NCBI GenBank assembly: GCA_946185345.1 | Contig: CAMHJC010000001.1 | Coordinates: forward strand, 486 to 64,485 | Length of the DNA stretch: 64,000 bases | Source: an uncultured Clostridia bacterium | Lineage (GTDB): Bacteria > Bacillota > Clostridia > Oscillospirales > Acutalibacteraceae | Reading direction: 5' to 3' | In this document: one piece after another, positions 41,467 to 55,672 of the stretch | Position numbering within the stretch: position 1 is the stretch's first letter | Layout: each line of letters starts with the position of its first letter | Translations under genes and position numbers: made by a program | Notes under the pieces: generated by a model | What the model was told of the DNA's origin: nothing | The model's input: only the letters and a program-made list of their open reading frames with translations | Database searches by the model: none

Positions 41467-41560
41467 GCGCAGCGGAGCTGCGCTTAGAGAATAGAGAATA
41501 GAGAATAGATAATAGATACTAGTTTCGGAGCGCTTCGCGCTGGAATATATATTTTTTATT
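41467..41560 (+). repeat. Heptamer-array + GC-hairpin intergenic module (copy A)
   Basis: Hairpin GCGCAGC-GGA-GCTGCGC (41467-41483). Heptamers TAGAGAA x3, TAGATAA and TAGATAC (41485-41522). Then TTTCGG-AGCGC-TTC-GCGCT-GGAATATA. Confidence 0.8.
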
Positions 41561-42544: not shown

Positions 42545-42630
42545 AAAAAACGTTCGCTTAGAGAATAGATAATAGATAATAAAGAATAGATAATAGTTTC
42601 GGAAGCCCTTCGGGCTTGAAAAGTAATATT
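42545..42630 (+). repeat. Heptamer-array + GC-hairpin intergenic module (copy B)
   Basis: CGTTCGCT, then TAGAGAA/TAGATAA/TAGATAA/TAAAGAA/TAGATAA (42559-42596), then TTTCGG-AAGCCC-TTC-GGGCTT-GAAAAGTA. It aligns with copy A over about 65 nt. Confidence 0.8.
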
Positions 42631-51202: not shown

Positions 51203-51522
51203 TTCCTGAAAAAATTTAGATGATTGTAAAACTTGATTGACAGCGTAAATCAGGGCTTTTACACTTGATACTATTAATCCGGCAATAAAATATCTATCCA
51301 TTTTTTCTTCAGCCGAGGGAAGGATTTTTTTGGTTTTTGCCTTTTGCGTATTCGCCTGACTGCATTGCTTTTCCCAGTGCGTCGCAGCGAGGGGCGCTGC
51401 CCTTAACCTGCGAGGAGGTCCAGATCCCCTCGACTCCCACGCTCACATTCGTTCGCTAGTTGTGCGCTGCGCTATGCTTTTTTTCTATTTCTTTTACAAT
51501 CGCCTATTCCTGAAAAAATTTA
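51203..51522. mobile_element. Possible ~280-bp miniature insertion with inverted ends and flanking 16-nt direct repeat
   Basis: The direct repeat TTCCTGAAAAAATTTA occurs at 51203-51218 and 51507-51522. The inverted repeat is GATTGTAAAA (51222-51231) with TTTTACAATC (51492-51501). The interior holds the 25-nt sequence (51273-51297) also found at 47320-47344. Confidence 0.4.
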
Positions 51523-51586
51523 CAACTCATCGGTTGACAAATTCCGTTTTTTACATCATGATATAGTATATAAAGTATGCATTGCG

Positions 51587-53491: not shown

Positions 53492-54394
53492 ATGTCACAG
53501 ATCTATTCCAAAATCGACCGAATTCCCTCAGGGCAGGCCTCCGAAAAGCTCGTCGAAGGCTGCCTTGTGCTGGAGGGCGGCGCTTTCCGGGGATTGTATA
53601 CCCAGGGTTTTCTTGATGCCATGATGCTGAACGACCTCAATCTCAGCTGCGTCATCGGCGTTTCCGCCGGCGCGCTGGGCGGCCTGAATTATGTATCGGG
53701 TCAGATCGGCCGGTCTGCCCGCATCAATCTCAGCTACCGTCACGACAGCCGATACATCGGCGTCAAGGCCCTGATACACAGTCACAGCATACTGGACGTA
53801 GGATTTCTCACAGAGGACAGAGGCATTATCTCCGAGCCTTTGGACGAGCAGAGATTCTACCGTCCCGAACAGCGTTTCGCAGCAGTGGCGACAAACTGCG
53901 TTTCCGGCAAGCCCGTGGTCTTTGAAAAAGGCAAATGCGGCGATTACCTTCTGGATGGCGTGAAGGCCTCCGCTACCATGCCGTATATTTCCCCTATGGT
54001 GCAGATCAACGGCATCCCGTATCTTGACGGAGGCTGTTCCTGCGCCATTCCCTACCGCTGGGCGATTAAACAGGGGTTTGAAAAAATCATCGTCATCCGC
54101 ACACGGGATCCGCTTTTCCGCAAGAAGGATACCCGCATCTCACCGGCGCTCCGCATTTACAGCCGTTACCCCGCGCTGGCGTTGAAACTCATACAAAGCA
54201 ACAGCAGATACAACCGCCAGTGCGATGAAATAGAGCTTCTCCACAAAAACGGACGGCTGCTCCGTCTCGCTCCCTCAGAACCGGTCACTGTCGGCCGAGT
54301 GGAGCCGAATCTGGAAAAACTCGGAGAACTGTACTGGCTCGGCTACAACGACTGCCTTTCACATCTGTCACGTATAAGAAATTATCTGTCCTGA
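53492..54394 (+). CDS. Patatin-like phospholipase family protein
   Basis: LEGGAFRG oxyanion motif, GVSAGA (GxSxG), and DGG at the catalytic Asp. Confidence 0.85.
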   Translation: MSQIYSKIDRIPSGQASEKLVEGCLVLEGGAFRGLYTQGFLDAMMLNDLNLSCVIGVSAGALGGLNYVSGQIGRSARINLSYRHDSRYIGVKALIHSHSILDVGFLTEDRGIISEPLDEQRFYRPEQRFAAVATNCVSGKPVVFEKGKCGDYLLDGVKASATMPYISPMVQINGIPYLDGGCSCAIPYRWAIKQGFEKIIVIRTRDPLFRKKDTRISPALRIYSRYPALALKLIQSNSRYNRQCDEIELLHKNGRLLRLAPSEPVTVGRVEPNLEKLGELYWLGYNDCLSHLSRIRNYLS

Positions 54395-54436
54395 GATTTC
54401 CGAGTGTTCAGAACAACGGCAAACGGAAGGTTAGAT

Positions 54437-54627
54437 GAGTGTGGAGTGTGAAGTGTGGAGTGTGGAGTAAATGAGCGCCTGTGACGCTGGAATATAAACG
54501 CTCACTTGGAAAAAAGACGTTCGCTTTTATAGTGAAACCCAATCAGTCTGAGAAAAGCCATTAAGCGAGCTTGCGAGCGTATATTTTTCAAGCCCGCAGG
54601 GCTTCCAAAACTCCACACTCCACACTT
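54437..54627. repeat. Heptamer-array inverted-repeat structure (copy C) enclosing two hairpin modules
   Basis: Heptamers GAGTGTG/GAGTGTG/AAGTGTG/GAGTGTG lie at 54437-54468. An 18-bp perfect inverted repeat pairs AAGTGTGGAGTGTGGAGT (54451-54468) with ACTCCACACTCCACACTT (54610-54627). Inner motifs CGCTGGAATATA and AAGCCC-GCA-GGGCTT match copies A and B. Confidence 0.8.
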
Positions 54628-54688
54628 AAGCACAGCTCCGCTGTGCGTTTTACGGTCTTCGGATAATGGAAGCAGAGAAGGAGATACA

Positions 54689-55672
54689 ATGAGCAACATA
54701 AAAATATTTCTAAAAAACTTCACCGCCGGCAGGAGGGCGCTTTTCAAGCGCATGGGAATCTATCTCGGATCGGCGCTGGCGGTCTTTGAGGCCGCCAATA
54801 TCCTGCTTGAGGACGGAGCGGTCGCCAATTGGTGCGCCGGAATGACCCTGGGCGGAATCAGTCTGCGCTCGGTGCTCACCAATGTCTTTGTCTATCTCGG
54901 TGCGGGAGCGGTTCTGGCGCTGCTGCGTCAGGGATCCTTTGCGCATTACTGCATGAATATCATCGGCACCGACGTCAAAATCGAAATCGCCATGTCGGAC
55001 ATCTTCTCCAACCGGGGAGAAATCGTCGTGCCGTGCAATACCACTTTTTCCGGCCGCAGGGAAGTCATCGGGGGCAGAAGCATTCAGACACAGATGACCG
55101 AGCGTCTCCGCCTGCCGAAAGACGAAAACGGTTCGGCGGAAAACGGCGGCGAATACTTCGAGAACGCCGTGAAGCAGGCGCTTCAGCGTCCCGAGTGCCG
55201 GAAACGGCGCATCGAGGGACAGAAGGAGCTTGCCGGCCGGCTGTACGACATTTACCAATACGGCACCATGGCGCCCGTGACATTCCCTGTGGACGGAAAG
55301 CAGCGCAATGTCATTTTGTTAGCGGTCGCCGAAATGCTCGAGCCGGACAAGCCCAAAACCGACGGGCAGCATCTGATGAAGAGCATTGACGATATGTGGG
55401 AGCAGATTGCCGCCTGCCGCACCCGGGAACAGACACTTGTTGTGCCGATTCTCGGCACCGGAAGCGCAGGCATTACCGACAAGCCGCAGCAGACGGTGGC
55501 AAGGTATATTCTGCGCACATTCGCCGACAACGCCCACAGGCTCGGCATCAAAAAGCTCATTCTCAGCGTTTATCCGCAGGATTATCTGGACGACAAAATC
55601 AATCTGGAAGAGCTGCGCTGCTACGCCGATTACCTGTGCAGATTCCCCGACAGCGATTTTAATATTTCGTAA
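54689..55672 (+). CDS. Hypothetical protein: N-terminal 2 TM helices + C-terminal macro-like (DUF6430-like) domain
   Basis: RBS AGAAGGAG. TM helices are IYLGSALAVFEAANILL and LTNVFVYLGAGAVLALL. Motifs VVPCNTTF...IGGRSIQ and LVVPILGTGSAG resemble macro-fold phosphate-binding loops. Family assignment is tentative. Confidence 0.5.
   Translation: MSNIKIFLKNFTAGRRALFKRMGIYLGSALAVFEAANILLEDGAVANWCAGMTLGGISLRSVLTNVFVYLGAGAVLALLRQGSFAHYCMNIIGTDVKIEIAMSDIFSNRGEIVVPCNTTFSGRREVIGGRSIQTQMTERLRLPKDENGSAENGGEYFENAVKQALQRPECRKRRIEGQKELAGRLYDIYQYGTMAPVTFPVDGKQRNVILLAVAEMLEPDKPKTDGQHLMKSIDDMWEQIAACRTREQTLVVPILGTGSAGITDKPQQTVARYILRTFADNAHRLGIKKLILSVYPQDYLDDKINLEELRCYADYLCRFPDSDFNIS

Follow-up and report, generated by a model that had tools for sequence, protein, structure and literature searches.

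Heptamer repeats occur in excess in many bacterial genomes and S23p/intervening sequence (IVS) proteins are widespread, with no known function for either. Here we analyse a palindromic element with inverted heptamer arms, located at positions 54437–54627 of a 64-kb stretch of DNA (hereafter referred to as the window) from a rumen Clostridia metagenome-assembled genome (MAG; G000, 2.5 Mb, 176 contigs, 93% complete). The element lies between the genes for a patatin-like phospholipase and a membrane protein with a ThsA_Macro domain. An earlier note on this DNA had described variable but self-complementary arms around nested hairpins and had suggested either a structured RNA or a recombination substrate. 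We compared the element with the rest of G000 and with a genus sample of 20 genomes (G000 and 19 congeners), in which the relatives are labelled uncultured rumen 'Ruminococcus' RUG MAGs. Labels beginning with C denote contigs of G000 unless another genome is prefixed, and those beginning with L denote retrieved loci.

A nested palindrome in an operon gap

The locus comprises the following features, in order of position.

53492–54394, + strand: upstream gene, patatin-like phospholipase (context).
54404–54677, no strand: whole inserted block of about 270 bp, flanked by GATTTCCGA and AAGGAG in alignments with the empty sites of congeners.
54421–54436, + strand: outer module AAACGGAAGGTTAGAT, found inverted at the outer edges of other copies (C66, C133, C21 and C115 end in AAACGGAAAGTTA / TAACTTTCCGTTT).
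54437–54468, + strand: left arm, tandem heptamer array (GAGTGTG)4.6, from Tandem Repeats Finder (TRF) and a repeat search.
54474–54488, + strand: hairpin module 1, AGCGCC-TGT-GACGCT, with one mismatch, followed by GGAATATAA at 54489–54497.
54498–54526, + strand: inner-stem module X (ACGCTCAC...GTTCGCTT), which pairs with X′ in 16 of 16 aligned copies.
54506–54533, + strand: a promoter-like match within X (TTGGAA-16-TATAGT), without conservation in the family.
54527–54562, + strand: asymmetric central loop with a CCAATCAGTCTGAGAAAAGCC core, the source of the element's polarity in the alignment.
54563–54580, + strand: inner-stem module X′ (AAGCGAGCTTGCGAGCGT); the same module lies directly 3′ of the stop codon of a four-helix-bundle gene on C117.
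54590–54604, + strand: hairpin module 2, AAGCCC-GCA-GGGCTT, flanked by ATATTTTTC and CCAAAA.
54610–54627, + strand: right arm (ACTCCAC)2.4, the exact complement of 54451–54468.
54630–54652, + strand: outer hairpin GCACAGC-TCC-GCTGTGC plus GTTTTA; the same hairpin occurs in C21, C66, C133, C83 and C13:13222 and belongs to the repeat.
54689–55672, + strand: downstream gene, membrane protein with a ThsA_Macro domain (context); its own ribosome-binding site (RBS), AAGGAG at 54678–54683, was kept after the insertion.

The arms form an exact 18-bp inverted repeat (54451–54468 and 54610–54627) around 141 nucleotides (nt) of hairpins, as the earlier note had stated, and the pairing extends imperfectly to 53-nt arms with 72% complementarity; TRF places the right-hand array at 54610–54626. 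Across the whole window there is no other perfect inverted repeat of at least 16 bp within 250 nt, and no repeat of 18 bp arose in 40 first-order Markov simulations, in which repeats of 14 bp had a mean number of 0.075. Either strand is predicted to fold into a long imperfect hairpin of about −84 kcal/mol (−84.9 and −83.6 kcal/mol), and the fold check that the note had proposed for both strands thus gave structures far more stable than dinucleotide shuffles (z = −7.0 and −7.7, respectively).

Motifs within the element recur in two modules near dapA, and these matches, which the note had already pointed out, proved exact and non-random: in the window, GCTGGAATATA is found only at 41539 and 54486, and GGAAGCCCNNNGGGCTTGAAAA only at 42601 (+) and 54585 (−), with zero occurrences expected. 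The region was also confirmed as non-coding, because the minus-strand open reading frames (ORFs) 54502–54753 and 54408–54542 have no match in Pfam and both lie in DNA without counterpart in the congeners; the first of these had been called probably spurious in the earlier note. A Pfam search of ORFs likewise found no PF05635/TIGR02436 gene within the 141-nt interior between the arms.

A multicopy mosaic family

A search of the genome revealed that the element belongs to a multicopy family. By BLAST and alignment, G000 contains 11–12 full-length copies and many half copies, several of them at contig ends, and the closest copies are 92–94% identical over 177–214 bp, including the non-repetitive core. 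The total for G000 is about 15–20 copies, and at least 15 gene-less ones have a single arm word in common along with the extra conserved modules. The arms, written GAGTKTG, give 43 pattern matches in G000, and the heptamer is therefore not locus-specific, as had been supposed. Arrays of this type are present in 7 of the 20 genus genomes (6 of the 19 congeners), and a reversed-pattern control gave none.

Alignment of the copies defined a common architecture: outer words, array H, hairpin hp1, X, loop, X′, hairpin hp2 and inverted array H′. The outer words are AAACGGAAAGTTA and a GCACAGC-N3-GCTGTGC hairpin. hp1 is followed by GGAATATAA and then by X, with the consensus ACGCTCRC...GTTCGCTT; an asymmetric loop of 40–50 nt separates X from X′ (consensus AAGCGARC...GAGCGT), after which comes ATATTTT. 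The inner length is 122–142 nt in 17 of 23 elements, and a unit with its hairpin and inner-stem modules measures 190–270 bp. Four hairpin stem sequences (AGCGCC, AAGGCGC, AAGCCC and AGCGGC) are interchangeable, and 38 of the 46 hairpin positions in these 23 elements are perfect GC stems of 6–7 bp; the left hairpin of the 54437–54627 copy departs from the family consensus by one C·A mismatch.

The modules are combined in several ways. Those near dapA stand alone as an array plus hairpin and share hairpin and inner-stem modules with 54437–54627, and C5:22830–22980 is a permuted version of the element. Two copies are chimeric: C13:9172–9350 joins a GAGTGTG arm to a TAGAGAA-type arm, and G000:C43:17690–17850, in the dnaK–dnaJ spacer, consists of X, AT-rich heptamers (TAGAGAA/TAGATAA), two hairpins and (CTCCACA)n, its arms deriving from two different heptamer families. 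Complementary arms are thus usual and not obligatory. Besides the patatin–macro gap, copies occupy the operon gaps atpG–atpD, dnaK–dnaJ and asd–dapA, and others are found at the 3′ ends of genes or between genes that converge. The elements reshape the spacers of housekeeping operons in rumen Clostridia, and MAG assemblies break where copies lie.

Two further observations concern the surroundings of these elements. At L082 (G000:C115:3340–6920), an Smr-domain gene and an uncharacterized ORF of 143 residues are enclosed by two near-identical copies, with a gene for a TIR-domain protein to one side and a DUF6062 gene to the opposite side. The elements on C115, C160, C21, C36 and C133 have the words TTTACAATCGCCTGT and AAATTTCCGTTTA at their outer edges, and in the window both words occur upstream of glgB (51441–51560), together with a solo X (ACGCTCACATTCGTTCGCT, 51441–51459) and no heptamers.

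Fold, polarity and a possible RNA function

The element could be read as a dedicated structured RNA, either a small RNA or a cis-regulatory element of a 3′ or 5′ untranslated region, bound by a periodic RNA-binding protein in the manner of TRAP or HutP beside a terminator hairpin. Its very stable predicted fold, the maintenance of the stems through four alternative hairpin sequences and its location within a probable operon transcript are all in favour, and the 7-nt period with NAG words resembles that of HutP sites. Nonetheless, we consider this reading unlikely. Rfam, searched at gathering thresholds and at E = 10, returned no family, the Gut-1 motif included, and only noise at E ≥ 4.5. Both strands are equally stable, and the polarity set by the loop shows no preference relative to the direction of transcription, with four copies co-oriented and three anti-oriented to flanking genes and further copies in convergent or divergent contexts. 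Neither a promoter nor a terminator is conserved across the family: the promoter-like match falls in a 10-nt insertion confined to one subfamily, the outer hairpin 54630–54652 is terminator-like but scores under the threshold of the terminator scan, and no canonical terminator was called. RNAalifold recovered the nested stems from 16 copies with a covariation term of −0.05, although this near-zero value is uninformative either way because nearly all stem pairs are invariant in the family. Finally, the same site is empty in seven congeners (see below), and the patatin and macro genes therefore do not need the element. Specific NAG-N4 sites of the HutP/TRAP type were also considered and rejected; the period fits, but some family heptamers (TGAATAA) lack AG and the arms lie on both strands.

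Insertion, inversion and concerted arm change

In seven syntenic congeners (L035–L040 and L043), the gap between the patatin and ThsA-macro genes measures 27–51 nt and ends in the same AAGGAG RBS, as compared with 294 nt in G000, which indicates that about 270 bp (54404–54677) were inserted in this lineage. In the nearest relative, G213 (RUG10784; 87% protein identity), the block is absent from this site and the same arms give 36 pattern matches elsewhere. A second filled/empty pair is provided by the copy on C21, whose site is empty in G213, G207 and G211.

The genes on either side appear to be long-standing neighbours. The ThsA_Macro protein (327 residues; domain E = 1e-20) adjoins the patatin gene across the genus, and the pair therefore resembles a resident unit of two genes more than a mobile defence island. 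The same gap holds a different element in another genome: at L041 (G205:C45) it is occupied by a 313-nt palindrome with 9-mer arms, (GCATACCCT)3 and the complement, which is an independent insertion. Similarly, where G000 has the C21 copy, L085 (G216:C38:2410–3251) has an unrelated 840-bp mosaic insert of AT-rich arrays, an X′-like module (AGCGAGCGAACGCGAGCGT), GC-rich hairpins and a unit of about 75 bp repeated five times in tandem.

Occupied orthologous sites reveal rearrangement within the element. An element whose outer flanks are orthologous occupies the atpG–atpD gap in three species, and the hairpin modules of G000 are swapped and reverse-complemented relative to those of L001/L002 (alignment scores 28 versus 1 and 19 versus 0). 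At the C5 site, the modules are inverted in G213, and both arms there read GAAGTGT/ACTTCAC instead of GGAGTGT/ACTCCAC. Inverted interiors and a joint arm change at orthologous sites indicate that the arms act as recombination partners and evolve together, as judged from these sequence comparisons. Of the two possibilities raised in the earlier note, recombination is accordingly the one that gained support, and a dedicated structured RNA is not favoured.

Such inversions raise the possibility that the family consists of invertons, in which a site-specific recombinase acting in trans flips the 141-nt interior and thereby switches the downstream gene. A perfect 18-bp inverted repeat around a short segment, the occurrence of both interior orientations between species at orthologous loci and the promoter-like match inside the 54437–54627 copy would fit such a switch. 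However, the interior is itself nearly palindromic and would be little changed by a flip, the promoter-like site is restricted to the subfamily insertion described above, copies are also found between converging genes or at the 3′ ends of genes, and there is no recombinase gene beside the element, its neighbours encoding GlgB, patatin, ThsA-macro and KsgA. We therefore regard an inverton family as improbable.

Association with four-helix-bundle genes

PF05635 is the family of the four-helix-bundle protein S23p of 23S rRNA IVSs. Its sole match in G000, at C117:52–315 (93.5 bits), is also recognized by TIGR02436 and by Protein Data Bank (PDB) entry 2RLD (E = 2e-28). Directly after its stop codon follow X′, AAGGCGC-GAA-TGCGCCTT and (CTCCACA)4, which together constitute a right half-element with the same heptamer as at 54437–54627.

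PF05635 homologues are present in 75 of 201 genomes of the bacterial family, and array statistics were computed on 55 retrieved loci. The density of period-7 arrays is 2.76 per kb up to 300 nt from the PF05635 genes and 0.079 per kb in the remainder of these loci, a 35-fold difference. Where arrays flank the gene on both sides, the arms are reverse-complementary, with at most one mismatch per heptamer, in 9 of 11 non-redundant loci (permutation p ~5e-5). The words themselves differ between loci (GAGAGTG, AATTAGG, GAATTGA, AAATGCA, GTAATGC and others): homologues 61–75% identical to the C117 protein are accompanied by GAGTGGA, GAGTGAG or GTGAAGT-type words, and more distant ones by AT-rich words. 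In G215, a 74% homologue carries tandem X′+CCACTCT units 3′ of the gene. The notion of variable but self-complementary arms thus holds across this wider class around four-helix-bundle genes and is strengthened by the orthologous copy in which both arms changed, but complementarity is not a strict rule, as the C13 and C43 chimeras demonstrate. Our literature search found no paper tying S23p-family genes to intergenic heptamer arrays or to any such arrays outside rRNA.

Many four-helix-bundle genes in congeners and the wider family are located just downstream of a tRNA gene (L013, L016, L019, L022, L025, L053, L057–L061 and L066–L071). At these loci a compact 'array–hairpin–inverted array' palindrome stands in front of the gene, not around it, sometimes in tandem cassettes.

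The C117 region also contains a repeat unrelated to the heptamer family, a miniature inverted-repeat transposable element (MITE) that ends in ...ATGGATAGATATTTTATTGCCGGATTAATA. It occurs in the window at 51273 to ~51440, at C117:1–54, C160:3770–3814 and C83:1–52, and at about 60 further sites in the genome; many contigs end in it, one copy lies inside the sole four-helix-bundle gene and two lie inside heptamer elements. This MITE accounts for three candidates that we rejected. The string 'ATGGATAGATAT...TTGCCGGATTAATA' (C117:25–54 and C160:3770–3814), taken as a gene start or remnant, is the MITE terminus, which has at least 60 copies; MDRYIIAGLI, taken as the N terminus of the C117 protein, is encoded by the MITE end; and an origin of the gene-less copies by internal deletion of a gene-bearing form was dropped, as the supposed remnants were again the MITE terminus.

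Array size and the pentamer

TRF copy numbers of period-7 arrays are bimodal, the first peak (2 units) being at chance level and the second lying at 4–5.4 units, and fall sharply beyond 5.5: G000 contains 23 arrays of 5–5.5 units and 2 of 5.5–6, and the four-helix-bundle loci contain 30 and 7, respectively. Copy numbers for periods 6, 8 and 9 decay monotonically. These distributions bear on the explanation that replication slippage built heptamer microsatellites in place beside existing terminator hairpins, with neither an element nor mobility. Polymerase slippage has been put forward as the source of the heptamer simple sequence repeats that many bacteria carry in excess (PMC4692102), and array lengths and words do differ between species at the same site. 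By contrast, array sizes here are peaked and capped near five units rather than geometric, two-sided arms match as reverse complements, and the whole 270-bp block, core and outer hairpin included, is 92–94% identical to other copies yet missing in seven congeners. Slippage in place is already strongly disfavoured, and we give it very little weight.

The S23p protein of Xanthomonas campestris is a homopentameric toroid (PMC4990558), and PDB entry 2RLD comprises five chains. An upper mode of about five words matching five subunits is suggestive. The heptamer arrays might accordingly be docking sites of homopentameric S23p-type toroids, with one 7-nt word per subunit and the word co-evolving with the protein; this idea, which draws on analogy with the known pentamers, is tentative and in our judgement more doubtful than not. 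If it were true, gene-less copies would be dispersed binding sites, and the family would amount either to a mobile-DNA system that is guided by a protein and uses no conventional transposase or to a post-transcriptional regulon spanning the genome; in both cases the idea would account for the orphan S23p/IVS protein family as well as for the long-noted excess of bacterial heptamer repeats.

A probable gene-less miniature of an IVS-like cassette

The same layout brackets PF05635/TIGR02436 genes in related genomes, and the element is therefore best read as a miniature of IVS-like cassettes. On the sequence comparisons above, it is probably a gene-less, non-autonomous miniature of an IVS-like PF05635 (S23p) cassette, belonging to a mosaic, nested-palindromic family that invades short intergenic gaps in this group of rumen Clostridia and turns over there.

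According to this reading, the block would have entered the patatin–macro operon gap after this lineage and G213 had split. In the DNA, the inverted arms would promote inversion, and probably also gain and loss, through host recombination, with no enzyme encoded by the element. The arms may in addition be recognition sites of the pentameric four-helix-bundle protein, at roughly one heptamer per subunit, which would explain why the same word occurs in both arms and why the arrays stop near five. At the RNA level, a read-through patatin–macro transcript is predicted to form the long hairpin, with a basal duplex of 18–26 bp. By analogy with the stems of S23p-bearing IVSs, RNase III, whose gene (rnc) is present in the genome, would cut this duplex and uncouple the two cistrons, leaving the native RBS at 54678–54683 intact.

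Several observations weigh against this interpretation. The C117 gene is cut near codon 22 by the unrelated MITE, and its upstream side is lost to the MITE and the contig end; the truncated product would lack the basic N terminus (pI 5.0, as compared with a family median of 8.7), and a tblastn search with homologue N termini for the missing 5′ part gave only a chance match in the dnaK–dnaJ spacer. The only four-helix-bundle gene of this genome may thus be inactive. Likewise, the nearest relatives rich in GAGTKTG, G213 and G210, have no close C117 homologue, their best matches being 51–53% identical, which implies that copies persist, and perhaps spread, without a cognate protein. Persistence of gene-less copies without an evident cognate gene would fit the reductive evolution of the S23p ORF in Coxiella (PMC4990558). 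The arms of the chimeric C13 and C43 copies are non-complementary, movement of the element was not directly observed, the boundaries of the two filled/empty pairs (patatin–macro and C21) show no target-site duplication, and we found neither a longer family copy carrying a transposase nor any enzyme associated with the family.

The last two points also bear on the proposal that the element is of the repetitive extragenic palindrome (REP)/bacterial interspersed mosaic element (BIME) type, moved by a REP-associated tyrosine transposase (RAYT; Y1), or a classical MITE moved by an insertion sequence (IS) transposase. Short GC-rich palindromes in mosaic combinations, intergenic location, high copy number, small size, terminal inverted repeats and presence/absence polymorphism are features of such elements and are all found here. 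On the other hand, target-site duplications and a transposase-encoding relative, the remaining hallmarks of MITEs, are missing; Y1_Tnp has no match in the 93%-complete genome, in which positive controls were detected; and known IS ends do not resemble the tandem heptamers of the arms. RVT_1, the reverse transcriptase that a retron or a diversity-generating retroelement with an Avd-like protein would require, is also absent from the genome. An origin of the REP/BIME or MITE type is thus highly improbable, and the gene-less S23p miniature is the reading that we retain.

Comparison with known systems

The closest parallels to the element are the 23S rRNA IVSs that carry an S23p ORF in Leptospira, Coxiella burnetii, Xanthomonas and Brucella; they are regarded as selfish inserts with an often decaying ORF, and in Coxiella RNase III cuts the terminal stem of the IVS, which is 28 bp long (PMC4990558). 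Common to IVSs and the present element are the link to the PF05635 family and the inverted terminal arms, and an RNase III gene is available here. Unlike an IVS, the 54437–54627 copy is located between protein genes rather than in rRNA, is gene-less, has arms of tandem heptamers and extra hairpin and inner-stem modules, and belongs to a family with many copies in one genome.

The arms resemble the convergent intergenic heptamer pairs described by Rehm et al. in 2015, GGGAATC of Xanthomonas and GGGGAYT of Nostoc (PMC4692102). Those arrays mostly have about four units, lie in intergenic DNA near gene ends and vary between related species, with about 70 convergent, stem-loop-capable pairs per Xanthomonas genome; they were interpreted as G-quadruplex formers and were not linked to any gene (PMC4692102). 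The present element shares with them, and with the cyanobacterial short tandemly repeated repetitive (STRR) heptamers, tandem 7-nt units in about four copies, intergenic location and convergent pairing. It differs in that its words are not prone to form G-quadruplexes, its modules are conserved within a 190–270-bp unit, and period-7 arrays are statistically tied to four-helix-bundle genes.

Correia elements of Neisseria, other MITEs and the REP/BIME sequences of Escherichia coli are likewise small, multicopy, intergenic modular palindromes that are co-transcribed with their neighbours and vary in presence between strains, and the hairpins of Correia elements are RNase III substrates. In contrast to these, the present element lacks a target duplication, a cognate transposase or a RAYT, and its ends are tandem heptamers.

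Inverted heptamer arrays (PMC4692102) and S23p genes within inverted-repeat rRNA stems (PMC4990558) are already in print. What is new is the multicopy, gene-less mosaic form with extra hairpin and inner-stem modules, together with its documented insertion, inversion, concerted arm change and size ceiling. The locus thereby offers a natural experiment on the link between heptamer repeats and S23p proteins, combining a dated insertion into an operon gap, inversions, concerted changes of the arms and a gene-less multicopy form with an array-size ceiling that matches a pentameric ring.

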